Assembly: GCA_963693365.1 (NCBI GenBank)
Contig: CAVNZM010000008.1
Location: forward strand, 9,794,293 to 9,858,292
Origin: Amoebidium appalachense
Taxonomy: Eukaryota; Protista; Ichthyosporea
Length of the DNA: 64,000 bases
Direction of reading: 5' to 3'
Of the stretch, positions 27,596 to 63,800 are shown piece after piece; positions within the stretch are counted from its first letter, which is position 1; each line of letters opens with the position of its first letter. Below the pieces are notes generated by a model. The model ran no database searches. It had not been told where the DNA came from and saw only the letters and a program-made list of their open reading frames with translations. The translations under genes and the position numbers were made by a program.

Positions 27596-28059
27596 GTTTG
27601 TTGTTTGGTGGGGGGGGGGGGGGGGGGAGGGGAAGGGGGGAAGCCCCCGCGGGTCCCCGGATGCAGGAGACAGAGTGAGGGCGAACAAAAACAAACAATA
27701 TAGGTGATTATGGAATGGCATGGAAATTGAGACCACACATGTGCAGAGGGAACGGGTGTTTTTGTTTTGTTTTTTCTTTCTTTCCCCCCCCCCCCCCCCC
27801 CCCCCCCCATCCCCCCCCCTCCCCCCCCCGCGGGTCCCCTGATGCAGGAGACAGAGTGAGGGCGAACAAAAACAAACAACATAGGTGATTATGGAATGGT
27901 ATGGAAATTGAGACCACACATGTGCAGAGGGAACGGGTGTTTTTGTTTTGTTTTTTCTTTCTTCCCCCCCCCCCCCCCCCGAAGTTACGGTATGTACTGC
28001 TTGAGAAAGTAGTATCGCAGAGAATGGCAGAGTGCGACTAACACAATGGTCCACTATAA

Positions 28060-28246
28060 ACTTCGCTATATGCGGGAACCTCCTTAGAACCCACGGGACT
28101 AGACAGGGATTTTCTTTTGTCAGTAAAACAACGTTGGTATTGGGAAATCCGCAGGAAACTAATTTAGATAAAATATCTATTAGTAGAATCCTCAGAGACT
28201 ACATGCGAAACAATCTGTTATACGTGCAGATTGGAGATATAGTCCG
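28060..28246 (+). ncRNA. Group I intron catalytic core (IB-like), probably an organelle- or plasmid-derived insert
   Basis: P ATGCGGGAAC (28070), Q AATCCGCAGG (28146), R TCAGAGACTACA (28192), S GAGATATAGTCC (28234) in canonical order. Pairings P3 TTCGC/GCGAA, P4 TGCGGG/TCCGCA, P6a ACTAAT..TAGATA/TATCTA..TTAGT, P7 GACTA/TAGTC and P8 CAATCTGT/GCAGATTG all form. Confidence 0.85.
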
Positions 28247-28247
28247 C

Positions 28248-28509
28248 TCTTTATATCTTTTACCAAAAGCTCTTACAACACTGGCCAGCTCGTTTGAATG
28301 TGAGGTACAAAAAGGATCTTTCCCACATGAATTATTTCAAAGCTCCAAAGTACATGACTTCAATTTTATAGGCGAATGACCAGCATATGAATATTATACA
28401 GATATAACACAAGAAGATTATAATAATATGAAACAGGATGTATGGAATTGTAAAGAAGAAACGTTGAAATATTTAGAAGGTGATTTAATATCGCTCTATC
28501 AAGTAATTG

Positions 28510-29528: not shown

Positions 29529-31738
29529 TTACGCCGCAGATCGCACAAAACTAAACAGTTTCTTAATCGACTGTCTCCTCTCATGTCCCTTCTCCGGTGA
29601 GTGGCTCGGGGGGGACCCCATCCCAGCGTGCAGCCCGGATCCGTAGCCTCCCGCTATCCTCTGCTGATATTCCGGTGAATTTGTTTTCAAAATATAGTAA
29701 ATGGCGACCACGTGGTCACCGACCGACGCCACCGACGTGTCCGATGTCGACCTTAAACTCAGTCTTATGTCGTCATGACTGAACCCAAACGACTTAAGCT
29801 GCCTCACGGCATCATCCGAATCGATCAGCGACGGATCGGCCAATCCCGTGGGGTCCGGCGACGCCGCCACCGCAATTGTGCGATGTGATTGGGTGGGCCG
29901 GATAAAACTAGATCGCAACCTCTGGGGGAGGGTGGCCCAAGACCACTGGGGCCGGTCTAGCATCATCCACGGGTGGTGAAGGATCTCGTTTAAGGTAGGG
30001 CGGAGGTTGGGCTCGAATTGGAAGATTTGAGATAGGAGGCTGGCTGCTTCGTTGGTTAAGGCGGGAGGAGGGACATAGTGGTGCCATGTGCGTTGGTAAC
30101 GTTTCACCTCAAAGGGGAGAACGGCTGCGGGAAAGAGGGGAGGGTAAGAAAGCTGCAAACTCTTGATTGGATATGGAACACGGTGCAGGACATAAGAGGA
30201 TGTGCACAAAAGCGCGAAGAAGAAGGATGAAATCTATAGTGTATGACGCTTGTAGTGGTTTCTAGCAGGTGTGGGTATGCACTTGGGTGCGTGAGCGTGT
30301 GGTGTTTACTGCCTGCATCTACTTAACGTGCAAGACAAACCATCATCCACGTCTCTACATCTCAACAATGGGCAGACTAACGGACAAAGACCCCCCTCTC
30401 CCCCCCCCCCCCCTCCCCCTCCCTTTCCCCCCCATATCTCCTGCGCAACGAAATAGATACCTCTGCCCATGCCCAAAAAAGGACTCGATGCAAGGTTGCT
30501 ACGGCAAGCCCCCCCCCCCCCCCCCCCCCCACCCCTCTTCCCCCCTCCCCCCACCTCACGTCCCCACCTACAAGCATATTCGGTATTCCACTGTCACCCG
30601 ATTTCTCCATCCCACCCTCTTTACACTATTTCGTCTCATCTTCGACTACCCCTCTGCACGTCCTTTCCATACCCCTCCTCCTCCCTCCCTCTCTATATCC
30701 TAACAGAACCTCTTCTCCCCCTGGGCCCCCTCTTCTTTCCTTTGCCCCCTTCCCCCTTCCCCCCCCCCCCCCCCCCCCCCCCCCGTCCCCTTCCCCCCCC
30801 CTCCCCTCCCCCCCTCCCTCCCCCCCCCCCCCCCCCCCTCCTCGTCCCTGGATATTGTTCCACGTATTGAGTGTGTTCATACGCATAAAAGTAACCAAAA
30901 GAAAAAAATGGGATCCCCCCCATTCAGCGACCCATATTGCACGAAAAATTGCATGAAAAATGGCTCGTCCGTTGAACTCGACACTCTTCTTCTGCACCAA
31001 CACACCTGGCAACTATACACGTGCTTGAGTGCAACCCAAAGAGAAATTGAACTCACTGCCCACACGAGGTCGGCCACTATTCTTACCCGCCAGCATGGAA
31101 TGCAGAACAGCGCCCAGCGCCCACACCTCCGCAGGAGGGCCCAGGTATCCATTCCCGTTGTGCACATCGTACACCTCAGGGGCAGCAAACACCGCAGACC
31201 CAGTAGGTGACCACAAGGCCTCTGTCGCTGCATGACCAACAACAATAGAGAGCCCAAAATCGCACAGCTTCACGTTACCGCCAGCGTCGATAAGGACATT
31301 GGCGTTTTTAATGTCGCGCGAAATCACGTTTTTTTCGTGGCAAAACTGAACCGCCTGGACCAGCTGCCTGAACCAACGGCGTGCTGTGGGCTCATCCACA
31401 GGACCGTTATTGACGAGGTAGATGTGCAAATTGCTGCCGTTACAATATTCCATCACAATGTACATGTAGTTTTCATCTTCAAACACCTCGTACACGTGTA
31501 TAACGTGGGGATGGCCTCTGACCAAGCGAAGAGACGCGATTTCGTTTTCGAGTGTTGTCCTTTCCATTGTGAGTGATTTGTTAACGATTTTAACAGCAAC
31601 CTCCGCCCCCGTGAGTTTGTGTGTTGCCACATGGACGGCGGAGAAACAGCCCTGCCCTATCTGTGCGCCGAGTATGTAGTTATTGATGCCAGCAGTATTT
31701 AGTTGGCACTTCAGACAGTGTACGTTAGTCCCACACAT
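29529..31738 (-). CDS. AMPK-related (MARK/SIK-like, CAMK group) Ser/Thr kinase with UBA domain, 2 coding exons
   Basis: Exons 31738-31087 and 30124-29529 (G|GTAAGA ... CAG|CC, phase 1). GQGCFS, VAVK, RDIKNAN, DFG, AAPE, VWALG, RPTLNEILHHPW; UBA-like AVRQLKSFGFSHDDI...VAIYYIL. Confidence 0.92.
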
Positions 31739-32205
31739 TTTTGGTTTTTGGATGTACGCAAAGGCACCGGAAGAAAATATAGTAAATGTGTTTCTGGAAG
31801 AACAATAGGGTTAAGAAAAACGTTAACCTGTGTTTGTCGTCCCTCGTAACTGGTTAGCTAGCCAAAGTGCGAGCAGCCTTTGTTTTTAACAGGTAGTAAC
31901 TAAGGGTGTTTGTGTGTACAGTGACCAGCCCTTCGTATTCGGCAGGTCAAACTGAACGTTAACACGTGAAGAACTGAACGCATTCAAAAATATATTAGTC
32001 GAAATGTAACTGGTTTGCCTCAAAGTGGTGTGGTGTTGTTGTGTGCCTACGCCATGCCCGGAAAAACTGTACAAAGAAATCGTCCGAGCGTGGTAAATAC
32101 ACTCAAAAGTCCCCCTTCTACCCGCTACGCTCTAGGCAAGAAGTGAATGGGGTGAGTTGGCTTGTTCGAGTGTAAAGCCACCCCTAGATCTGGGACCGTT
32201 TCTCC

Positions 32206-33766: not shown

Positions 33767-35406
33767 TCATGCGGTCATCCGGAAACCATGCGGGTTGACC
33801 GTTATGATCAGCGGCCAAGTAGTACAATCGGCCGTCAGGTGCATATGCCCATCCGGGGGAGATCCACGTATACGATAGTGGGGCGTGGATATTATGCGGG
33901 TAGGGTGCCAAGTTGGGCATATGGGGGTTCGGGTATGTATTTTGAGGGAGAACGTAAGGGATGTGGTGGGGAGGCGGGGGGGGGAAGGGGGGGGTAGTGG
34001 GGTTGGGGGTGGAGGGGGAGCGGCCTGCGTACTAGTAGGTACGGCTAGGCGGGGGGAGGGGAATGAGTCGGAGAGTGGGTAGAGTGGGTGGCTGGGCAGG
34101 CATAGCTTGAGGCATGAGGAGGGAGGGGGAGGGGGTTGTGGAAGATGTGTTGGAAGGGCAGGGTGAGGTTGAGGTTGAGGGGGAGGGGGGCGGAGGGAGG
34201 GGGCGTGCGGGAGGGAGGGGGTGGGGGTGGGGGTGGAGGGGGGGGGTGCCTGAACCACGAATTCTGCATCCTCAGGGAGATCTTCTTCTGCAAGTGGGTG
34301 TTGCCCAGGTGCGGGGGGATCTTGTGGTTGTGGGAGAGGTGGAAAGGGTAGGATAGCATCGTCCAAGGGGCGGTCATCTCGGTTGGTTTTAACCGATCGT
34401 GATGAACCGGAATTTTCATAAATTTACCGTGTGGAGTGACAGGCCAATCCGTGGTGAGGATCGCGGCCGGCGTGGCAGGTTGTGCATGATGCAACATAGA
34501 CTAAGTGGTGTATGTCGCTGTACATGGTCGGCCAATAGAAATGTTCGCGGATTTTCTGATAGGTTTTAGAAAATCCTAAGTGGCCACCAAGTACGCTTCA
34601 AGTATTTTACGTTTGAAACCGCGTGGTACCACGATTTGAAAGCTTGGTCCATGTGCTTGAGCACCCGGTCGGGTGCGTACAAAGACATGGTATAGGGTGT
34701 TGTTGTGCACGGTATAAGCGTCACGTTCAAGCACGAGACGGCGTGCGAGTTTATCATCCTCTGGTAGGATATTGTGCACCAAATAATCTATAATGGGGCG
34801 CACATCAGGGTCTGCGAGCTGTGCTTGTTGTAGCTCGGGTTTGGCTTAATGGTTTCGATATTGGGAACAATCGCGGAGACAAAGGGAGAGGATTGGTGGG
34901 GGAAAGAGGGGGACTCGGAGGGGGGCGGGGGGAGGGGAGGAGAGGAAAATCGAAGGATCGGGTGGGGGAGGGGTAGGGAAGGAGTTGGGGAGGGGCCATG
35001 TGACGGAATGGTCATGCGGGGAAGAGGGGGGTGGGGGGGCAGCGGGGGAAGGAGGGGAGGAGGAGGGGGGTACGAGGGGCCCGGGGCAGACACGAGAGGG
35101 ACAGCGGGGGGGAACTGCGCCTGCCTGGACAGTGCGTTTGGGACCACGTGAAGCTTGCCGGGCCTATGTACAACATCAATTTCGTATTCAGACAGCTGTA
35201 ACGCCCAGCGGGCTAGACGGCCACTGGCAGTCAGCTGCTCCGTTGATCATGAGGAACTGTAAAGCACAGTGTGGTCGGTAATCATAATAAAGCGATTACC
35301 GTAGACATAGGGGCGGAATTGTTGCATGGCATACAAACATGCAAGTGCTTCCAATTCTGTGGGCGCATAACTTTTTTCAGCGCCATGTAGTGCGCGGCTT
35401 GCGTAT
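33767..35406 (-). mobile_element. Degenerate Ty3/Gypsy pol remnant (RNase H, integrase zinc finger, C-terminal tail)
   Basis: YASRALHGAEKSYAPTELEALACLYAMQQFRPYVYGNRFIMITDH (35406-35270), VPNALSR, TYQKIREHFYWPTMYSDI...CTTC (~34565-34475), VHHDRLKP; frameshifts present, integrase DDE core missing. Confidence 0.85.
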
Positions 35407-35708
35407 TGATAATCTGCATAACCGGACAAATCGGTCCTAATAATGGCTAAAAAGGACAAAAGTGTCCTATCTTTTTCGGCGGCGTCGCTAAGCGTTGTTT
35501 TCGATAGGAAACACCCCACAAGCTGGGTATGGCCAATGAGGTCTAGTATTTTCCTGCCTTTTTTGTCTTTATAGGAAACCAATAGGACTGCAGGGTGAGT
35601 AGCTCTTGACGCGCAAAAGATCATGGGTGCAACCGTTTTCCCCCAGTTTTGGGGTGTCCGACTGTCCGATCACGGACACCATTTGGTTTCCGAACTAAAA
35701 GACACCGC

Positions 35709-36320
35709 TGTTGTATAATATGATCGTGTGTCTGTGACAAACAATATGTTTATAAATGAACGGGGTTGACTAGACCACGCTTTGCTTAGTTACGTGCTAG
35801 TCCTACTTACACCTAGTAAGCCGAGCACACTAAGTCCGCTCTGAAGCCCCCGACATGCCCTTATAACGGAGCTCGCACAGCGGCTCAGACATGCGCATCG
35901 GTATGTGCTTTTTGGCTACGAGAGCCAATCACATACGGTTCACGGTTCTGTCCCATGGCTATCACGGTTCCAATAAACCTATTGAGCCAATCGGGTGACA
36001 GTACTTGATTATCGATGCATTCCACAGTCATACCTCACGCGGCTACTTGCATATTTTCCCATGATAAAACTATAACTTAACGCTCATGGTTCCTCTGCTA
36101 CGTGTCGGTCCCATGTGGCTATTATATCTGTTTTCCCATGAATAATCCTGCAAGTTGCACGTGCACATACGTTTAACTCCATGCTCATGCGCACAAGACT
36201 GGGAGGGACATGCATACTGGCCTACCTAAGATCAAACACAGTGGTATATATACATGTACACGTGTGCGTATATCTCAACCTGTGTACATCCATACTAGAT
36301 ATCCGGTATAATATACCACA
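35709..36320 (-). repeat. 3' LTR
   Basis: No differences from 42801-43412 seen by eye; termini TGTTGTATA...TATACCACA. Confidence 0.97.
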
Positions 36321-36360
36321 CGCCCCACCGTAAAAAGAAGTATGTCGTCCTCGACATACG

Positions 36361-39300
36361 TCACCATGCTCCACACAATGAGTCAATGTATCCGTGGAAC
36401 GATGCAAGGTCACCTCTGCGTTGGTGGAACTCTCGGATCTTGTCCGGGCAGGCTAAGTCTTTCTCAGACTCCCAAGAGGTGAATGAATCATCTTTGCCTG
36501 CCCACTTGATCTGGTACCACTTGTAAGGGGTGGATTGCTTGCGCCGTTTCTGAATTCTTACGTCAAGCACCTTTTCCACCACCCACTCGTCCGGCAGAAC
36601 CTTGTTGAAGTTGTGACTATCGCCCGTGTCCGGGAGGTGAGAGAGATCTTGAGGCCGAATTCTATTTTGCTCACTCAATTCAAGCTGAATATCGTCCACG
36701 TGCCACTTAGATTTCTTCATAGTTGCTAAGCTTCGGATCTCGTACGTAACCGGGCCGACCCTTTTGACGATTTCGTAACCCGTAATCCACCGTACATCCC
36801 AGGCACCGATATTTTTGGCTTGATTCCGAACACGTATCCGTGCACCCTTCTCAAATTCACGAGCCACCGAGGGGCCTGGGGGCTCTTGTACGGCACGTTG
36901 CTGGACCACAGCACGGAGCAGAGGCAGACGGGCTAGTAACTCTCGCCGGTATGCCTTCCACTCTGGGTCCTTGAGTGCCGGGTGGTTACTGTTAAGAAGG
37001 GCAACGTCAGGGAATTGTGTTGCTTCTTGCCCGTACACAAGATAATACGGTGTACATTGCAAAATTTTGTGTGTTGTTGTGTTGTATGCATGTGTAACCA
37101 CCGGCAACAGAGTGTCCCAATTAGTGTGCTCATAATTAACGTACTTTGAGAGTGCATTATTAATAAATCTATGAGACCGTTCATTGGAACCGTTGCTTTG
37201 TGGGTGATATGCAGAGGTGCTCACTTGTGCAATATTTGCTATACGGCAAATCTCAATAATTAGCTCATTGAGAAATTCTGAACCCTGATCACTCAAGAGT
37301 GTACGAGGGGGGCCGTGTATATAGCAAATTACATTCATGAGTGCATGTGCAACATTAACGGCATGCTTAGATTGGATGGGCACAGTGATTAAATACTTCG
37401 TTGCCATATCCATAAACACACAAATGAAAGTATTACCATTTTTCGTTTCTGTGAACGGACCCATAAGGTCAACAGAAACACGAGAGAACATTTTTAAATT
37501 TTCGTATCTCTGTTCAAATGGCCTACTTCTCAAGTGTGGGTTATCGTTACGGCCTTGGCACTGTGTGCAGGCATTCACATAAGCAGTGATATCTTTGTGC
37601 ATGCGTGGCCAATAATAATTGTATAATCTTTCGTAAGTTCGTTCAATGCCAGTATGAGCCCCCCCGTCGTGCACACTTCTTAATAAATCAGCACGAAGGA
37701 TTTCGGGCACATACAGGCAACGACGACCATCCTTAGCCACATGATAAAGCACGTCATCCTCTATCACACACATTTGTGCTATTTTCTTAACCTTATTGTA
37801 TCCGAAATACTCAAGATTAAGACCGTGTGCAGCTCGTTCCCCCCCTGCCTGCCATTCCCGTTTGGCCTCGGCATCGAGGGAGGCAAGCCACCGTAGCCAC
37901 GTGATTATATCCTTACACATTTTGTCCCCCCCCTGTGCCATCATAATTGCTTCCTTCTGATAGCCGGCACCACCGAGTGCAGAAAGGGAGGGCAGGCCGG
38001 CTTGACTGAGTGCAGAAATTTGTGCACATTTCAAGCGGTCTGGATCGAAAATGTGTGTGAATTCGAGTGCATCGCCCCAATCAACAAACACTTCGGCTGG
38101 TTGCGAGCTAAGCTCGGATAAATCTGCTGTGAGAACCTCTTGTAATTCCTTTTTCACATCCCACCTTTCCAGTGTTATGTTTTCGTTCTCATGCAGAATA
38201 TATCCTATACGGCTTAACCCATCAGCATCGTGCATGGTAGGGCCAGGACGGTAGTATAGATCGAAATCATACTCCTGCATTTCCAAAGCCCACCGTTGCA
38301 TCCGTTCGTTTGCTATCCGTTTGACACCTTTAAGAGAAAGACAGGGCTTATGGTCACTTTCCACAATAGTATTTACTCGACCATACACGTACACCCTAAA
38401 CTCTTTCAGTGCCCAATAGATTGCATGCGTTTCTCGTTCGATGTTGCTCCACCTACGTTCGGTAGGTTGAAACATCCGGGAGGCATATGCCACCGTGCGG
38501 AACTTGCCATCATTTTGTTTTTGATACAGGCAAGCCCCTTCCGAGAACCGACTAGCATCACAACGAATAAGAAACTGACCCCCCGTGGGGGAAAGATCGG
38601 GCAGGGCAAGCACTTCCTCCGATAACGCCGATTTTAAATCTTTAAACGAGCGATCTAATTCGTCCGTCCATTTTAACCGTCGGTGTTTTTCTCCGTAACA
38701 CTCGGCATTCATGGGTCGGGCTCGCTCTGCATAATTTAAAATGTGACGGCGGAGATAGGAAGTAATACCCAGAAAACCCCGGAGTTGGTGTAGTGTGTTT
38801 GGTACCGGCCAATCTTTCACTGCCTGAACCTTTTTCGGGTCGGGCCGAATGCCATTCACACCTACAATCCAACCCAAAAACGGTATTTCCGTTAGCCCAA
38901 TATATGTCTTTGCCCCATCGAGCTTAACACCATATTCACCGAGACGGGTGAAAAGTCGGTCAAGCTTCTGTATTAATTCTGTTTCGGTGTGTGCACCCAC
39001 AGCTAAATCATCGGCATATATCACCACATCATCGGCCAGCGGGGCCAAAATCTGTGTCATGATAGATGCTAGCTGGGACGGGGAAGTACTGAGCCCCTGT
39101 GGTGCCACACAATAACGATACTGCACACCAGCCACAGAAAATCCTGTTTTTTCACGTGACTCAGCGTCTAGCAGTATTTGGTAAAAGGCACCCGACATAT
39201 CAGCTTTACAGAAATACTTATACCCAGCCAACTTCTCTATTTGTTGTTGCAAGTTGGGCATGGGCCAGGCAGATTTTCGAATTTGCTTGTTAATAGCACG

Positions 39301-39759
39301 AAAATCAGTCAGCAGACGGTATTTTCCGTTTGGTTTTCGTATTACGAAGGTGGGTGAATTATACTGACTGTGTGCTTGTTCCATCTGCCCTCTATGACAC
39401 ATATCCTCCACGATCTCCTTTGCAGCCTGCTCTTTCACTTGTTCCAACCTCCACTGTTTTAATCGAATCGGTGTGTTATCTCCCGTGTCTATGTGCATGG
39501 TGAATCCTTTAATCTGAGGAAATTCGTCGGGGTCCGTAGTGGTGAAGCAACGAGAGTGTGCTTCTAATAGTTTCTTAACCTCCGGAAGCATACTCTGAGG
39601 CACCCTATTCCAATCAAAACCGTGGGGAGCCTGGCCGGCATCGTGTGCACCCCCACCCGAAATTTCCGAAATCAAATTTTCGCGGGGGGGGTTTTTCATG
39701 ATCAACGGCACACATTGATTGGTCGATCGGTGAGTGTATCGGACCGCCTCGTGTCCCAC
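36361..39759 (-). CDS. pol: Pol: reverse transcriptase, RNase H, integrase, chromodomain
   Basis: RT (LTDFRAIN, PQGLSTSP, YADD), RNase H (CDAS, ESDH, DADGLSR), integrase HHCC + SVDLMGP / SDQGSEF / NERSH, C-terminal chromodomain EWVVEKVLD...YQIKWAGKDDSFTSWESEKDL. Probably entered by frameshift rather than own ATG. Confidence 0.96.
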   Translation of the reverse strand: MGHEAVRYTHRSTNQCVPLIMKNPPRENLISEISGGGAHDAGQAPHGFDWNRVPQSMLPEVKKLLEAHSRCFTTTDPDEFPQIKGFTMHIDTGDNTPIRLKQWRLEQVKEQAAKEIVEDMCHRGQMEQAHSQYNSPTFVIRKPNGKYRLLTDFRAINKQIRKSAWPMPNLQQQIEKLAGYKYFCKADMSGAFYQILLDAESREKTGFSVAGVQYRYCVAPQGLSTSPSQLASIMTQILAPLADDVVIYADDLAVGAHTETELIQKLDRLFTRLGEYGVKLDGAKTYIGLTEIPFLGWIVGVNGIRPDPKKVQAVKDWPVPNTLHQLRGFLGITSYLRRHILNYAERARPMNAECYGEKHRRLKWTDELDRSFKDLKSALSEEVLALPDLSPTGGQFLIRCDASRFSEGACLYQKQNDGKFRTVAYASRMFQPTERRWSNIERETHAIYWALKEFRVYVYGRVNTIVESDHKPCLSLKGVKRIANERMQRWALEMQEYDFDLYYRPGPTMHDADGLSRIGYILHENENITLERWDVKKELQEVLTADLSELSSQPAEVFVDWGDALEFTHIFDPDRLKCAQISALSQAGLPSLSALGGAGYQKEAIMMAQGGDKMCKDIITWLRWLASLDAEAKREWQAGGERAAHGLNLEYFGYNKVKKIAQMCVIEDDVLYHVAKDGRRCLYVPEILRADLLRSVHDGGAHTGIERTYERLYNYYWPRMHKDITAYVNACTQCQGRNDNPHLRSRPFEQRYENLKMFSRVSVDLMGPFTETKNGNTFICVFMDMATKYLITVPIQSKHAVNVAHALMNVICYIHGPPRTLLSDQGSEFLNELIIEICRIANIAQVSTSAYHPQSNGSNERSHRFINNALSKYVNYEHTNWDTLLPVVTHAYNTTTHKILQCTPYYLVYGQEATQFPDVALLNSNHPALKDPEWKAYRRELLARLPLLRAVVQQRAVQEPPGPSVAREFEKGARIRVRNQAKNIGAWDVRWITGYEIVKRVGPVTYEIRSLATMKKSKWHVDDIQLELSEQNRIRPQDLSHLPDTGDSHNFNKVLPDEWVVEKVLDVRIQKRRKQSTPYKWYQIKWAGKDDSFTSWESEKDLACPDKIREFHQRRGDLASFHGYIDSLCGAW

Positions 39760-40858
39760 TCACATGCCCTTCGTGCCCACACATGTTATCGGTAGGCACC
39801 CGGCCCGGTGGCACGGCCGGAGGTGAATTGGGTAGGCAACCTTCTCCACCCCCCGTTGCCCACCTGATGCACTGCGCTATTGCACCAACGACGGTTTGTG
39901 TACGACTGGGGTGGGGTTCGGCTTGCAAAACACTCAGTTCGTGTATGTACTCATGTCGGCTCGTAGGAACGAAATGACCGATGGTACCGAACACGTTCAA
40001 ATCCGGACCCACACCATTTTCGCACACAACAGCAATAGATTTATCCACACTAAGTTCACAGATGGTGGGGGGGAACTTATCTCGAAATTCACGAGTAGGC
40101 TCGAAGATACCGAGGGTGCCAGCAGCAGCAGCAGCAGCAGTCACCTGCACCGTTGCACGTAAGACACATCCAAAGCCAGATTTGACGGTGGTGTCGTGCT
40201 TGACGGTAACAGGACACATTGTGTAGGGGGTGTGCAAAGATGACGTCGGCACCACCATCCCCGACACCAGTGTTAGTGAGTGTGCTTGATGATTAGTGGT
40301 GGCAATGTGTTTGTTGGCAAAATCGTTCCCAATAATCATGTCATGCTTAATATTTTTAATTACTAAGCAAGGCCACATGAATGTTTGAGAACCGAGGCAT
40401 AACGGGAGCATCACTTCACCACTCACAGCTAGAGCTTTATCGTTTTTTCTTACAGAAGTAACAATAACATCCGAGGGTTGCAAAGCAAACTCCTGCATGT
40501 GTCGGGAAAAAACAGCTTCACTAACCACCGTGAATGATGCCCCAGTGTCAAACAATGCAAAGTATTTTTCATTACTCAACGTAACATTAACATAGATACG
40601 TCTTCCTGCATTGCATATGGCACTTATATCGAACACTTTTCTTATTCTATCGAGTGTTCGAAGTTTCTTTGTGGGGGGGGATAGGTGTGGGGGGGTGGGG
40701 GGTCGGGGGTCGGGGGAAGGGGGCTCGGAGGGGGGAATATCAGAAGAAGCCGGGGCAGAAGCACATGGTATAGGCACATTTTTAATTACTTTTTCGTGAC
40801 CCACTGGGTCACAATGTGCAATACATGCCGTATTCGTGCTTCCAGCACCGGCAATTAC
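39614..40858 (-). CDS. pro: Aspartic protease ORF (pro)
   Basis: ALFDTGASFTVV and DMIIGNDF; open in the gag frame immediately after the gag TAG. Confidence 0.9.
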   Translation of the reverse strand, partial: VIAGAGSTNTACIAHCDPVGHEKVIKNVPIPCASAPASSDIPPSEPPSPDPRPPTPPHLSPPTKKLRTLDRIRKVFDISAICNAGRRIYVNVTLSNEKYFALFDTGASFTVVSEAVFSRHMQEFALQPSDVIVTSVRKNDKALAVSGEVMLPLCLGSQTFMWPCLVIKNIKHDMIIGNDFANKHIATTNHQAHSLTLVSGMVVPTSSLHTPYTMCPVTVKHDTTVKSGFGCVLRATVQVTAAAAAAGTLGIFEPTREFRDKFPPTICELSVDKSIAVVCENGVGPDLNVFGTIGHFVPTSRHEYIHELSVLQAEPHPSRTQTVVGAIAQCIRWATGGGEGCLPNSPPAVPPGRVPTDNMCGHEGHVSGTRGGPIHSPIDQSMCAVDHEKPPPRKFDFGNFGWGCTRCRPGSPRF

Positions 40859-42736
40859 CTATTTATCACTTTGCTTGCCCTTCTTCTTGGCAGCTCGGGT
40901 GGGGCAATCTTTAAAACGATGCCCCGGCTGCTTGCAAGCCCAACAATTGGGCCCCCTCTTATCTTTCTTATTTTCCTTAGCCCATTTGCCCCCCCCATTA
41001 GATTTACCCTTACCACCAACATTACCCCCACTACCTCCGTGGCCACCCCCGTGACCACCACCACCACCACCATGCCCCCCACTACCACCACCCATCTCAT
41101 CTACAGCACCCACATTACGGTTACATTTTAAATTGTGAGCACCCACATCAGCCTCATACCGTCGGATGACACGGCCCATGGCTTGTTTGAGGGTGGTTGC
41201 AGCCCGGGCCTCGGAACAAAGGTCCGGGTAGTCGTTGAGGGTACGTTGGTAATGATGAAGCACAACCTCGGGCATGTCCTTGAGACCCGAGTTGGAGATG
41301 ATGCAATTAAATTTCTTGTGGAATGTCTTTATCGAGGCCCGAGTGTGCATAAAACGAAGCTTGTTCAGCTCGTTAAAATGCTCCTCCTTACGTTCCTTGT
41401 CTAAATACTTCTCAAGGAACTTAGCCCAAAAATCGTCGATGCCGGTGCACGTGGAAAGGTCGACGTTGTCGGCAGCATCTCGGGGGTCCCCGGGGCCCAT
41501 GCACATACGAATAAACATCAACGTGCGATTTAAGCCCACCAACTCCATAATACAAAAGAAAATTAAATGATGTTGGAGTTGTTTGTAGAATTCGTCGATA
41601 TCGGCATCTGCCTCGAGCATAGGACGGGACTGAATTGCTGCTGAGGGGATGTGTTGTATCTTTTCCTTCCCCTCCCGGTCGTCACCGTTGCCGTCGTTAC
41701 CGTCACCGTCATCACCACCGTCACCGTCGTCGCCACCACCATCACCACCACCGTTAGCACCTCCGGCACCATTAGCACCACCGGCACCACCGTCAGCACC
41801 ACCGTCCGGGGGAGGTGGGGGGCCACCGCCACCTGCATTACCATCCCCATTTTCGTTGGCAGCAGGAGGGGGGTTGTTATGCCCCCCCCGGCCACCACCA
41901 CGTCCACCCCTACCACCACGGCCAGAGTTCTTACGGGGGCCCCGTCCGGCACGAACCCACGAGGGGAGCATGCTTGGATGAAATTTTCGAGGGCCCCGGT
42001 TACCATAATAAGTAACCACTAGGTCGAGCTCACCACGACTAAGAGTCACTAATTGATTGATAAATTCATGTGACTTAGTGATGGGGGAAGACTGCCCTGA
42101 AAGGCACGCGTAGTTTTGCCTGGAAGTGAATACATTCGCGAGGGCGAGTAGTTGTTGGTGGAGCAAGGTGAGTGCCGTCGACGAACGGTACAGTGCCGTG
42201 CGCGCTGTACAGCTGGCAAACTTCGATACCAAAAATGCCAGCAGCACGAACAGAAGGAGACACCCAAGAACGCACCAGCACCAAGCTGCCAGGCTCACGC
42301 CCGTCTTGTTGTGCAAATTTGCATACTCCGTTAGGGCGCGTATGAGGGCGTCTGGTGCCTCGGCTTGCGTTTGCGTTGACCTCGACATATAGCCCGTGGA
42401 GAAGGTCGACTGATGAATGTCGATTGTCTTCAGGTGGCAAGTCTTCGGGGTCAAATGATTGGCCGTAGTCGGTTTCCCCTGAATGAAAAGAGAAGCAGTA
42501 TTGATTGTCGTGTTGCAAGTCGTGTGAACGGAAGTAGACACGGTCGAGCAACGGAAGGTCTGCTCCAGGAGGGTGCCACGGTGAAGAGCCGGGGGGGGAA
42601 AGGGGAACATTATAGCCGAGTTCTTCCAGGAAAATGATGTCGGCGTTTCTAGCTTCCCCCCCATGCAGGCCACTAGGGCCGGCATTGTTGTCACCAAAGT
42701 GGTTAGACATGTTAGGACCCAAACAACTAAAAACAT
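40859..42736 (-). CDS. gag: Gag (625 aa from first ATG after the PBS) with N-terminal hydrophobic/TM extension and CCHC zinc knuckle
   Basis: CWACKQPGHRFKDC knuckle, capsid-like FWAKFLEKYL...LNKLRF...SIKTFHKKF, Gly-rich linkers. Confidence 0.88.
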   Translation of the reverse strand: MFLVVWVLTCLTTLVTTMPALVACMGGKLETPTSFSWKNSAIMFPFPPPALHRGTLLEQTFRCSTVSTSVHTTCNTTINTASLFIQGKPTTANHLTPKTCHLKTIDIHQSTFSTGYMSRSTQTQAEAPDALIRALTEYANLHNKTGVSLAAWCWCVLGCLLLFVLLAFLVSKFASCTARTALYRSSTALTLLHQQLLALANVFTSRQNYACLSGQSSPITKSHEFINQLVTLSRGELDLVVTYYGNRGPRKFHPSMLPSWVRAGRGPRKNSGRGGRGGRGGGRGGHNNPPPAANENGDGNAGGGGPPPPPDGGADGGAGGANGAGGANGGGDGGGDDGDGGDDGDGNDGNGDDREGKEKIQHIPSAAIQSRPMLEADADIDEFYKQLQHHLIFFCIMELVGLNRTLMFIRMCMGPGDPRDAADNVDLSTCTGIDDFWAKFLEKYLDKERKEEHFNELNKLRFMHTRASIKTFHKKFNCIISNSGLKDMPEVVLHHYQRTLNDYPDLCSEARAATTLKQAMGRVIRRYEADVGAHNLKCNRNVGAVDEMGGGSGGHGGGGGGHGGGHGGSGGNVGGKGKSNGGGKWAKENKKDKRGPNCWACKQPGHRFKDCPTRAAKKKGKQSDK

Positions 42737-42800
42737 AGTACTTGCTTGATACGAGCACACTTGCAGCACAAGAACAGCGCTGCAGGGGGTGTAGCTCAGC

Positions 42801-43412
42801 TGTTGTATAATATGATCGTGTGTCTGTGACAAACAATATGTTTATAAATGAACGGGGTTGACTAGACCACGCTTTGCTTAGTTACGTGCTAGTCCTACTT
42901 ACACCTAGTAAGCCGAGCACACTAAGTCCGCTCTGAAGCCCCCGACATGCCCTTATAACGGAGCTCGCACAGCGGCTCAGACATGCGCATCGGTATGTGC
43001 TTTTTGGCTACGAGAGCCAATCACATACGGTTCACGGTTCTGTCCCATGGCTATCACGGTTCCAATAAACCTATTGAGCCAATCGGGTGACAGTACTTGA
43101 TTATCGATGCATTCCACAGTCATACCTCACGCGGCTACTTGCATATTTTCCCATGATAAAACTATAACTTAACGCTCATGGTTCCTCTGCTACGTGTCGG
43201 TCCCATGTGGCTATTATATCTGTTTTCCCATGAATAATCCTGCAAGTTGCACGTGCACATACGTTTAACTCCATGCTCATGCGCACAAGACTGGGAGGGA
43301 CATGCATACTGGCCTACCTAAGATCAAACACAGTGGTATATATACATGTACACGTGTGCGTATATCTCAACCTGTGTACATCCATACTAGATATCCGGTA
43401 TAATATACCACA
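42801..43412 (-). repeat. 5' LTR (TATA-like TTATAAG on minus strand at ~42952-42958)
   Basis: Same length and sequence as 35709-36320. Confidence 0.97.
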
Positions 43413-43482
43413 ACCGCATGATAGTGTGCGCGCTAGAAAACAAAAAGAACAAGGTAGAACTTCGGCAGAAAAAAAAAAGAAA

Positions 43483-44093
43483 ATGGTTAGGCGTTTAAGG
43501 AAAGACCAGAGAGTTTGGGTTTTTGCACGCATCTTTGATGGTAAAGCCAGGAACGATGATGAAAGTTGGAGTAAAGAGCAGTTTGGTGAAGAATGGGAAA
43601 CGAAACAGCTCACAGGCACAACTGTGCAAGTATTAAAGAACAACCCACCTTTGCTGGGTTAGTCGGTATGGTGTTTGTAAACACCTACCTGGCCTACAAT
43701 CATTTCATAACAGACGGGGACAAGAATGCACTTTCAAACGAGCAGTGGCGCCAAAAACTTGCGGGTGAACTTGAACTTCTCAACAACCCACTTCTGCAAG
43801 CCGGCAAACAAAGCACGCGCATACTAAAATCGCTGTCAACAAACACCACAACCGCCAAACGAAGCAACCTCTGTCACCCGGTGCTTATCGGTTCCGGCAA
43901 GCGGCCCGACAGTCACTGTGTTATGTGCGCGCGCACGGATCAAAAGGGATGCAAGCGCAGCAGGGTGAGCTGGATGTGCAGCAGGTGCGGTGTGGCATTG
44001 TGCTACAAAAATTCAGATCGCAACTGCTACGAGCTGCACCTGGAAAAGGGGGTGCCTGTACGCCACCGCAGAACCAAAGAGCAGGAGCAGTAG
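43483..44093 (+). pseudogene. Internally deleted piggyBac-like transposase, copy 1 (5' flank 35580-35708 split off by the LTR element)
   Basis: FAGLVGMVFVNTYLAY...WRQKLAGEL and C-terminal Cys-rich domain CVMC...CSRCGVALC...CYELH; N-terminus joined directly to the C-terminal part at ~43645, DDD core absent. Confidence 0.8.
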
Positions 44094-44148: not shown

Positions 44149-44710
44149 GGGGGGGGGGGGGACGTAAAGTTGCAGACTTTGCAGACTGCTTTGGGTTTGT
44201 GATCTCGAGCATACCTTTCGTGGGGTATAAGTTTCCTTTATTTTGTCTTTCTATTATAGAAGGGACTGGAACTAGTAGCAACAAGTGTATTCTCTAGCTA
44301 GCAGCACATAGTGGTCTTAGCCGCTCCAGAAACACACAATGAAGGCTATTTTTTAGTTTAAATTAAAATTTAGCGGAAAAACCACGTGTTTTCTTAGAAG
44401 GTCGCCAACTTCGATCGGATGCAAAAAACCCGACCACCTAATCTTAATTCTGAGGCAACCTACCTAACTAAGGTCCAACTTAGGGCACTTTTATCGAGAA
44501 AACCTTAGCCACACTGTCCCTGTTACCACCCGATCTACTTCTAATATTATGTTTACGACTTTTCTTCAATTTTCTGGCTAGTTAATGAGGAAAGTAAGTA
44601 CAAAAGCTTTTTAAGGCCTGGTTACTATGCAACTGCGCTAGAAATAGCGCGATCGTCTAAAAATAGGTTAATTACGACAAAAGTGTCCGAATAGATCTGT
44701 GCGAATTATC

Positions 44711-47600
44711 AATAGGACTGCAGAGTGAGTAGCTTTTGGCGCGCAAAAGATCATGGGTGCAACCGTTTTCCCCCAGTTTTGGGGTGTCCGACTGTCCGAT
44801 CTCGGACACCGTTTGGTTTCCGAACTAAAAGACACCTCATGATAGTTTGTGCGCTAGAAAACAAAAAGAACAAGGTAGAATTAGGGTAGAAATAGGTGAA
44901 AAGAAAAGAAAATGGTTAGGCGTCTAAAGAAACTTTGACCAGAGAGTTTGGGTTTTTGCACGCATCTTTGATGGTAAAGTCAGGAACGATGATGAACGTT
45001 GGAGTAAAGAGCAGTTTGGTGAAGAATGGGAAACGAAACAGCTCACAGGCACAACTGTGCAACGTGAAGTGTTAACCCTACTAACCCGAGTGGGCCATAT
45101 ATATGTTTTCAAGAGGTGCTGGTTGGGCGGAAAAGGCTCAAAAGTATGGAAAAAGCTGTGTCCAAGTATTATGTGATGACATAGAAACGTTTTCTAACAG
45201 CTTTAGCCATGTTTATACGCCTCTTTTTATTTTTCTATAGGACCCTTTTTCTATATAACTGAGTTCCGGAAGCGTGCTTTCGGATTTTCGAAAGCCATCA
45301 TGAACAACCATGTGCGAGCGAGGGATGTGTGTGATTGGCTCAGCATGAAAGTGCGAGCTAAGAAATCGATTGGCCAAATGGTTGATTAGCAGCTCATTAG
45401 CTTTGGCGTCACTGCGGCAACGTGTGATAAGCACTAGCGCACATGTACACGCCCTTTCCACTCGCATCATGCATGCCATTTTGCGAGATCACAAAAGGCG
45501 TATGTATTGTACATGTTTTTAATACGTAAATCAGGGGCGTGCTGTATTCTGACTCTTTGTTTCGTGTTTCGTGTGTAGGGGCATGCCCCTATATCTCTAC
45601 ATTTCCTAAATTCTTTTTCGTGGCCTGCAAGCTGTTGATTGGGTCGCGGGAGCAGGTCTTCCACATGTAAGATGCTGATGTAGACGTCATGCCTGTACGT
45701 ACGTACGCGTAGCTGGCGCGACGCTAGCGCTACGCACAACGGTAGTGTCGTGGAGCTCAATTTTATACCCTAAGTTGCTTCTATAAAGAAAATGAAGTTT
45801 AGTAAAGGTGTTTGCATTATATGTGTGGATTTCGTCCGCAACCTTCAAGGTTTGCCCAATTGCACGTGGCTTGCAACGAAATCTTATAGAGGGAAAACTA
45901 TCTTGACCGAGGCATTTGCCAACGATACATAAATGGCCCAGCGCTGCAAATGAGGGAACATAGTATACGTATACCTGTGTATACCTCGTACGTAAAGTAC
46001 AAAACTCTCCCGTGTCATACGTACATCCCTACGTACATGTTGCAAACGTCTACGTATACGTATATACAGTATGGATGCGCTTTGTAGGTCCGGGGCGAAT
46101 CGGCCGCCCCTACCAACCGAGGCCTGGGCATGGGAACGTGTACTGAGCGAGATCAGCCTGGAGAAAGCTAGCCGTGATAATGGACAAATCCGACAAGAGA
46201 CCGCCAGTTTCACGGCAGTCTAAGGCGTCTTTAGTTGCAAAATACCTCACCTATAATAGTTACATGTGGTAATGCTATAAATATTTTTATAAATTTATGT
46301 TTTTGTATAAAAATAATGAGCAGTTTACGCTATATAATGGGACAACCACGAAAAGCAGGCAACAAACAAATTGGCCGCATTCGCGTTACGTACTCTGATG
46401 ACCAATGATATTGGCGCCTTACACGAGCACACGAACTCGCCATTGCCGAAACGGCTTCCTTCTCCGGTTGTCTGAAATCTCTGTGCTATATGAAAACCAT
46501 GTTTTCTCTTTTTGGTTTTTTTTTACGGATTTACAGAAGTCCTTTGGGGTTTATAACTGTTGTTTCCGCATGACAGTAAAGTTACGTGTGCGATTGCTTC
46601 TGGATGCTCAATAGGATAGCTTCAACACTCAATAGATGGGACCTTCAAATGGACGTGAGTGCATGCATGCATTTGGCATCTTTTGTATCAGTCTTATCAG
46701 CGATGTAAAGGTGTACATTTTTGCCTCCCGTGCTCTTCAGTCACGTTATCCCAAGGCTGCGCAGCTGAAAAGACGGTTTACTTTATTTTCACCGGTGTTC
46801 CGCCAGTTTTCGGATCATTTCGCGGACTTGACCTCGCTTGAGGTATACGCCTACAGGCGCATGTAGGCCGTCGCTCTGGTCAAAACAAGTTGGGATCCCA
46901 TCGACAAACTCACATGGCAAGCTCATCGCGATCTATCCCTGGAAAGAGCCGATAAAATCGACCAATCTGGATCGCTCGAAGTCTGGGAACATTTTTGTCC
47001 CATCATCGATTGCGCTCGGATTCCTAGGGTTAAAGAACAATAAATGGTTGGTACACATAGACTACGACGGGAAAGTAGAAGAAGTACCACGGAGCGAGAT
47101 TCAGCTAGTTGTGGGATGTGCTAAGGCGTACTAGTATATAGACCTTTTTATTGGGGGGACTCCGAGGGGGGAGGGGGGGGGGGAGGGGGGGCAGGGGGCT
47201 CGCCCTCTCCCTCTCCCCCCATACGTTGGCAGGATAAGGATTTCAGCATGCGTGTAGTAACGACAGCAGGAAGTACGGAAGCAGGAGCTCCCCGTATCAC
47301 AAAAAACGGTACACAAGTGCCCAAGCCAAAAGCAGTGCACGAATACTTCACATATTTCAACAGTGCAGACGTACACAACAAACTCTGGCAAGGGAACAGT
47401 TCACTTGAGCAGGCATGGGCCCCCCACTACACCCTGGCACAGCACCTTTGCTGGGTTAGTTGGTATGGTGTTTGTAAACACCTACCTGGCCTACAAGCAT
47501 TTCATTGCAGACGGGGACAAAAAAACACTTTCAAACGAGCAGTGGCGCGAAAAACTTGCGGGTGAACTTCTCAGCAACCCACTTCTGCAAGCCGGGGCAA
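44711..47600 (+). mobile_element. piggyBac-like element remnant, copy 2 (interrupted by 45076-47029)
   Basis: 44711-45060 matches 35580-35708 + 43418-43628; 47248-47600 encodes PKPKAVHEYFTYFNSADVHNKLWQGNSSLEQAW then (frameshift) FAGLVGMVFVNTYLAY. Confidence 0.78.
45076..47029. mobile_element. Non-autonomous piggyBac-type element with TTAA TSD
   Basis: TTAA|CCCTACTAACCCGAGTG ... CGCTCGGATTCCTAGGG|TTAA (imperfect TIR); removal restores ...TTAAAGAACAA as seen uninterrupted in copy 1 at ~43633. Confidence 0.82.

Positions 47601-56133: not shown

Positions 56134-63800
<7,667 letters not shown>

Follow-up and report, generated by a model that had tools for sequence, protein, structure and literature searches.

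The question raised by one long terminal repeat (LTR) retrotransposon of the ichthyosporean Amoebidium appalachense is whether its Gag protein is anchored in a membrane, and what else is encoded upstream of the capsid-like part of that protein. The element lies in a 64,000-nucleotide (nt) stretch of DNA (GenBank assembly GCA_963693365.1, contig CAVNZM010000008.1, positions 9,794,293 to 9,858,292 of the forward strand), which we call the window and whose numbering is used throughout. It spans 7704 nt (35709-43412) on the minus strand, as do all of its features. A previous sequence-only reading proposed that its gag open reading frame (ORF) begins with a signal peptide, an ectodomain and a membrane helix, and that such a Gag could bud enveloped particles without a separate env gene. 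Our analysis indicates that the leader is likely dual-coding, carrying the gag frame and an overlapping second frame, named here orfX. A predicted membrane anchor in Gag is plausible, and an Env-like role for the part preceding it is not supported.

Translation of 42736-40859 gives an extended gag ORF of 625 amino acids (aa) without a stop, in agreement with the sequence-only reading. The frame is already open from 42841, and the AUG at 42736 is the first of the leader after the primer binding site. The N-terminus (aa 1-24, 42665-42736) is uncharged and a candidate signal peptide; the signal-like character ascribed to it earlier holds for its hydrophobicity, which is moderate (Kyte-Doolittle (KD) hydropathy over 19 residues, 1.92). 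It is followed by a Thr/Ser-rich segment (aa 25-146, 42299-42664), predicted to be disordered (predicted local distance difference test, pLDDT, below 50 for aa 26-128) and regarded here as a candidate luminal spacer. The described composition was found in full, with 25% Thr plus Ser in aa 18-147, Cys at positions 24, 63, 74 and 100, and sequons at aa 75 and 143. The strongest hydrophobic segment of the whole protein, VSLAAW...FLVS-K (aa 147-171), lies at the coordinates given for it before (42224-42298) and is a predicted transmembrane helix (KD 2.74; Goldman-Engelman-Steitz value 2.48; pLDDT 77-79). On an insertion-energy scale, it reaches -4.4 kcal/mol, compared with +1.0 kcal/mol for the N-terminal segment, and 10 of its 13 core codons have T at the second position.

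Neither the open frame nor the helix is readily obtained by chance. When the leader was resampled with a first-order Markov model, a frame of 255 open codons was obtained in 3 of 20000 sequences. The hydrophobicity of the helix, taken over 19 aa, was reached in 1 of 5000 resampled sequences, in none of 20 off-frame pol blocks and, with orfX held fixed, in 5 of 5000. These rates uphold the earlier view that the arrangement is not a product of decay. The charges flanking the helix (two K/R and two D/E before it, three K/R and no D/E after it) favour an N-out/C-in orientation, predicted to leave the capsid on the cytosolic side, and the single predicted helix is that expected of a type I membrane protein. 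The RGG and Gly/Asp/Asn low-complexity linker (41672-41962) is present as well; it had been placed directly behind the helix, and about 85 residues (aa 172-255, 41972-42223), predicted to be helical with low confidence, separate the two. A fold of the Gag N-terminus made without an alignment was uninformative (mean pLDDT 49) and gave no Foldseek match at E 0.001, a negative that carries little weight for a single-sequence model. The search with the whole Gag returned one low-complexity match among 7988 candidates scored; aa 1-260 gave 0 of 1539 matches against shorter proteins, and phmmer against 1.84 billion representatives gave 13 weak matches, none spanning aa 1-260.

While the earlier reading of the leader as an open gag frame is correct, it overlooked orfX (42075-42710), a 211-aa ORF starting at the second AUG, 26 nt after the gag AUG, within a frame open from 42881 to 42075. 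It overlaps gag aa 9-221, including the signal-like segment, the proposed ectodomain and the helix. Its predicted product is acidic over the N-terminal two thirds and contains no hydrophobic helix. Both leader AUGs (42736 for gag, 42710 for orfX) have A at -3. When the gag protein was fixed and its synonymous codons were resampled, orfX remained open in 0 of 20000 cases, and coding by the gag frame only is therefore rejected. In the reverse experiment, the gag frame was open in just 70 of 20000 cases (727 of 20000 with orfX 1-137 alone), which makes coding by orfX only unlikely. The Thr codons of the spacer are D/H/N/Y codons of orfX by construction, so that their complete coincidence with xAC codons (26 of 26) carries no evidential weight. 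The leader also holds three slippery-like heptamers, and a programmed -1 shift between the frames was considered. No homologue of orfX was found in the two collections covered, Pfam and PDB sequences, which is a light test, and its fold predicted without an alignment was uninformative (mean pLDDT 30). Overlapping ORFs of this type are missed by annotation based on the longest ORF.

Variation among copies was used to ask which of the two frames is under selection. The stretch is present in 20 of 24 listed runs, four of which were compared; for 41960-42790, the analysis covered 40 of the 69 variant rows, 39 of them within the ORF leader. The copies are related, adjacent changes were classed singly, and rare alleles are dropped by contigs. 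Taken as single rows, 42389 (gag) and 42387 (orfX) would create stops, but both are accompanied by 42390 at equal full depth in each of the four runs. Read by hand, the three changes combined give sense codons in both frames. No linked allele in these rows closes the gag frame. Without these three positions, 29 variants lie in the overlap, and both proteins are changed by 5 of them, where 13.7 would be expected (p 3e-4). When the three positions are included, over 42300-42710, the number is 5 of 25 against 11.9 expected (p 0.003). Of 16 variants that change gag, 11 leave orfX unaltered, which has a p of 0.001-0.011 if only gag is selected; of 16 that change orfX, 11 leave gag unaltered, with a p of 0.007-0.037 (four weightings) if only orfX is selected. 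The p ranges allow for conservative changes. Such patterns point firmly to selection on orfX and moderately to selection on the gag frame.

The gag-frame signal extends upstream of Met256 into the post-helix segment, where 6 of 10 variants in 41972-42166 are silent against 2.5 expected (p 0.02), and downstream of codon 191 the conserved frame is that of gag. In three DNA runs, the majority contigs agree with this copy across the helix in the rows considered. The spacer accepts radical gag-frame changes (W37L, S36F, L29Q, H71L and S67F; mean BLOSUM -0.33). A segment that tolerates such changes looks like a spacer rather than an Env. The indels include one 6-nt in-frame insertion. A diverged subfamily, about 14%, is gap-free over 42318-42584, then differs from the window for about 220 nt and rejoins it at the primer site.

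Our preferred reading is that the membrane Gag serves as an intracellular tether that keeps capsid assembly on the cytosolic side of membranes of the endoplasmic reticulum (ER) type; by analogy with known Gag proteins, we put this at a little short of even. A scanning ribosome starting at 42736 would produce the membrane Gag, leaky scanning to 42710 would yield orfX as a soluble accessory protein, and a start at codon 191 or Met256 would give an ordinary cytosolic Gag, with Gag-Pol made by readthrough of the TAG stop. In the membrane form, the signal-like N-terminus and spacer would precede a helix inserted N-out/C-in, and the 85-residue helical segment would lead to a cytosolic linker, capsid-like region and knuckle. 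The length and openness of the spacer would count for more than its sequence, and the protein would act as an intracellular anchor or assembly scaffold, like glyco-Gag or the Gag of intracisternal A-particles (IAP), not as a fusogen. Codon 191 (42164-42166) is TTG in this copy and more commonly ATG in other copies, at 472/737, 167/227, 920/920 and 12/12 depth units in the four runs; there, it follows the helix in the context CACC-ATG and is a candidate start of cytosolic Gag. Two candidate in-frame starts (AUG1; AUG191/256) are present in the sequence and could give a membrane and a cytosolic form. The sequence-only reading had considered translation solely from an internal AUG beyond the helix to be fatal to a membrane Gag, and the data go half of that way, with a post-helix AUG commoner in all four runs.

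Several observations weigh against this proposal. Upstream of the helix, the signal of selection on the gag frame is marginal (p 0.013-0.051), and for the signal-like segment it does not reach significance (p 0.13), with four of six variants silent and the remaining two keeping the segment apolar. T-periodicity across the entire helix is also not significant (p 0.18). All of these p-values are rough because 40 of 69 variant rows were used and the copies are related. The diverged subfamily retains the orfX motif YNVPLSP and rewrites nine gag-frame codons in the 30 nt visible. Deletions of 1-2 nt in two G-runs, seen in minority contigs of two runs, would break both frames; these contigs are dead copies or artefacts. 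Under the distance rule for N-glycosylation, sequon 143, just 4-9 residues from the helix, is probably too near to be glycosylated. Six upstream AUGs precede codon 191, leaving the route of ribosomes to that codon unexplained. A deep conservation test is precluded because neither the extension nor orfX has a homologue in the searches, and translation, start use and topology are all deduced from sequence.

The alternative that survives best, although we consider it unlikely, is that orfX is the sole real gene upstream of the helix, that translation from codon 191 or 256 makes a cytosolic Gag, and that the upstream gag frame with its helix is an unused by-product. This would account for the firmer selection on orfX, the radical changes in the spacer and the preservation of orfX rather than the gag frame in the diverged subfamily. 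At codon 191, ATG is more frequent than the alternative in each of the four runs, and six of six silent gag-frame variants past the helix are located after that codon. Additional 5' ORFs also have precedent in plant elements such as Ogre, as reported in PMC1142308. On the other hand, chance would leave the gag frame open in just 0.4% (with the whole of orfX) to 3.6% (orfX 1-137) of cases and so strong a helix would occur in 0.1%; the first AUG of the leader belongs to the gag frame, and this copy, whose LTRs are identical, carries TTG at codon 191.

A second alternative, slightly less probable still, retains the idea of a type I membrane Gag as the principal structural component, with enveloped particles that leave and enter cells and a luminal part serving as a minimal Env. 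The architecture and charge bias agree with an N-out/capsid-in topology, as had been claimed; the claim of an Env-like ectodomain is not supported, as the segment lacks a homologue or fold and changes radically while orfX is kept. Drosophila elements of the MDG1 group were proven to spread without Env by means of a small membrane protein whose ORF precedes gag (10.1101/2025.03.14.642691), and full-length glyco-Gag was reported as type I in virions (PMC11908239). In the present element, the luminal part is predicted to be disordered, has no fold match, is poorly conserved and, at about 120 aa, is much longer than the myristoylated ectodomains of sORF2/FAST proteins, which have 10-50 aa; the sequence MGGKLE at Met25 departs from the MGxxxS/T motif, and no fusion machinery is evident. 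Neither an sORF2/FAST-like fusogen, given the fusion to Gag, nor an Env is recognized, the latter for want of any match to F, gB or retroviral Env, with a disordered (single-sequence, hence weakly informative) model and radical variation. The boldest form of this idea is an Env-less chromovirus of a unicellular eukaryote with its capsid on an integral membrane Gag, enveloped budding, intercellular passage, an orfX partner and priming by a 16-nt tRNA 5' fragment, and we regard it as a long shot.

It is improbable that the helix is a translated 94-nt GT-AG intron (42205-42298), spliced from GTGAGC (42298) to CTGTACAG (42205) so as to drop the helix and join orfX 1-137, at codon 138, to the gag frame, which would make Gag soluble and give it an acidic domain at its N-terminus: the joined frame is continuous, would account for orfX-type selection upstream and gag-type selection downstream, would supply a Gag start without an internal AUG and would explain the hydrophobic translation by a T-rich tract, but the splice sites are weak (donor score -1.4; host donors in the window carry AG before GT), two AGs (42221, 42213) come before the required acceptor, both frames stay open through and beyond the intron without any need for splicing (about 12% each by chance), and the splice joint occurs in 0 of 4 runs, none of them recorded as RNA. 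The contigs of one run, X16, whose RNA nature is a guess, skip 42209-42347 without a joint and were used neither for nor against it.

Closer precedents for the intracellular tethering that we prefer may be found, by analogy, in IAP Gag, Ty1 Gag and glyco-Gag. IAP Gag is reportedly targeted to the ER through the signal recognition particle (SRP). IAP particles bud into ER cisternae, and their Gag has a short N-terminal hydrophobic stretch, without a spacer and 25-aa helix. For Ty1 Gag, SRP-dependent targeting to the ER has been reported (PMC3945221). Ty1 Gag has no discernible signal or helix, in contrast to the spacer and 25-aa helix found here. The nearest design is glyco-Gag (gPr80) of murine leukaemia virus, in which an upstream in-frame start gives a Gag leader with a membrane segment alongside the cytosolic Gag (PMC5120145). 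Its topology had been called the opposite of that proposed here; it is mainly type II, and a type I form is also reported (PMC11908239), so that the opposition is not strict. Its leader has 88 aa, starts from a CUG and belongs to a virus with env, whereas the leader of this element has 190-255 aa, starts from an AUG and shows two hydrophobic segments and an overlapping ORF, with no env.

Among Ty3/gypsy elements, sORF2 of the MDG1 group likewise precedes gag, beside a second small ORF, in an element without Env, and its product is a small membrane protein of N-out orientation. sORF2 is a separate ORF of 60-210 aa with a short 10-50 aa myristoylated ectodomain, the MGxxxS/T motif and a polybasic tail (10.1101/2025.03.14.642691), while in the present element the helix is part of the Gag reading frame and follows a far longer, motif-less luminal part. 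Ogre also has additional coding between the 5' LTR and gag; its ORF is separate and non-overlapping (PMC1142308; extra ORFs of plant elements are reviewed in PMC7264820 and PMC1142308). The env of errantiviruses has a signal-ectodomain-helix layout (PMC13524379), but it is encoded downstream of pol, and its ectodomain is large and folded. With chromoviruses, the element shares the order of pol domains, a CCHC Gag and a 5-bp target duplication; no membrane-helix extension or overlapping ORF is described for them in the literature searched. Dictyostelium Skipper-1, for example, is reported to divide gag and pro-pol between two ORFs and to carry a chromodomain (PMC5633606); other literature considered includes PMC6875170 and bioRxiv 2026.05.21.726589. 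A retrotransposon Gag fused to a transmembrane helix was not found in the literature search, which covered open-licence main texts. If translated, the leader would mean that an LTR retrotransposon outside animals arrived independently at an integral membrane Gag of the glyco-Gag/IAP kind, with a second gene packed over it as in compact viruses. If true, the proposal would bear on how the capsids of retrotransposons came to engage membranes before there was an envelope, and would offer a single-ORF test case.

A capsid-like region (aa 356-545, 41102-41671) occupies the position expected from the earlier assignment; its similarity is weak, with no Pfam capsid match and, in hhalign against four Gag-like matches, a probability of 5% at E 0.008, so that the name capsid rests on position and a weak profile match. 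The CCHC zinc knuckle noted before can be seen in the translation (40904-40945) and matches Pfam zf-CCHC below the cut-off (E 0.002). The gag TAG stop is followed by the in-frame protease and a stem-loop (40770-40861) of unusual stability (fold z -3.4, 0 of 200 shuffles), which suggests readthrough. In Skipper, too, pro is reached by readthrough of the gag stop.

The protease frame (39614-40858, Pfam Asp_protease_2) precedes pol (36361-39759), in which Pfam identifies reverse transcriptase, RNase H, integrase and a C-terminal chromodomain (E 4e-10). By this domain order, the element is a full-length Ty3/gypsy element with a chromodomain. Its nearest pol matches share merely 30-40% identity; one is a eukprot protein labelled Awhi, which we take to be from an ichthyosporean (32% identity over 903 columns). 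In this copy, pol is offset from the protease frame at a junction near 39600-39760, and this is likely a peculiarity of the copy because the contigs of three DNA runs differ there by a small indel; the copy may be non-autonomous or mis-assembled. The 612-nt LTRs (5' LTR, TG...CA, 42801-43412; 3' LTR, just behind a purine-rich tract, 35709-36320) are identical, and the insertion is recent, as previously stated. The TG...CA termini and a matched 5-bp target site duplication, GCGGT (left copy 43413-43417, right copy 35704-35708), are those of an LTR element, and a paralogous empty site near 44836 has this 5-mer once. No related loci were found in metagenome or viral contigs.

The primer binding site (42785-42800) directly follows the 5' LTR. 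It is the complement of tRNA positions 1-16, in the acceptor 5' arm and D-stem, and not of a CCA end. Of 85 IMG/VR loci with an 18-nt pattern of the site, 64 have it at the start of a tRNA-Ala gene and 10 at the start of another tRNA gene, with none called in 11, although these tRNAs are phage or bacterial and may differ from that of the host. A variant site in run X16 fits the other common tRNA-Ala 5' type. This suggests that reverse transcription is primed by a short 5' tRNA fragment, for which no precedent was found in the literature search; chromoviruses are reported to use a tRNA 3' end or self-priming (PMC6317226). Self-priming was rejected here, as the LTR has no complement of at least 7 nt to the LTR-proximal end of the site.

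The element is inserted in a dispersed repeat (43413-43804) with paralogues at 44655-45062 and 47443-47595. A decayed second Ty3/gypsy fragment (33800-35700, minus strand), with an RNase H match at 35250-35669, adjoins the insertion site. A short, weak DNA_pol_B_2 match on the plus strand (28005-28376, E 5e-4, below the cut-off) is possibly a Polinton/adintovirus-like remnant. Two host genes lie on the minus strand, one for a MARK/AMPK-family kinase (31013-31810) and the other, rich in introns, for an inositol monophosphatase (60500-63800). The host introns are of the GT-AG type and rich in poly-C/G and CA repeats.
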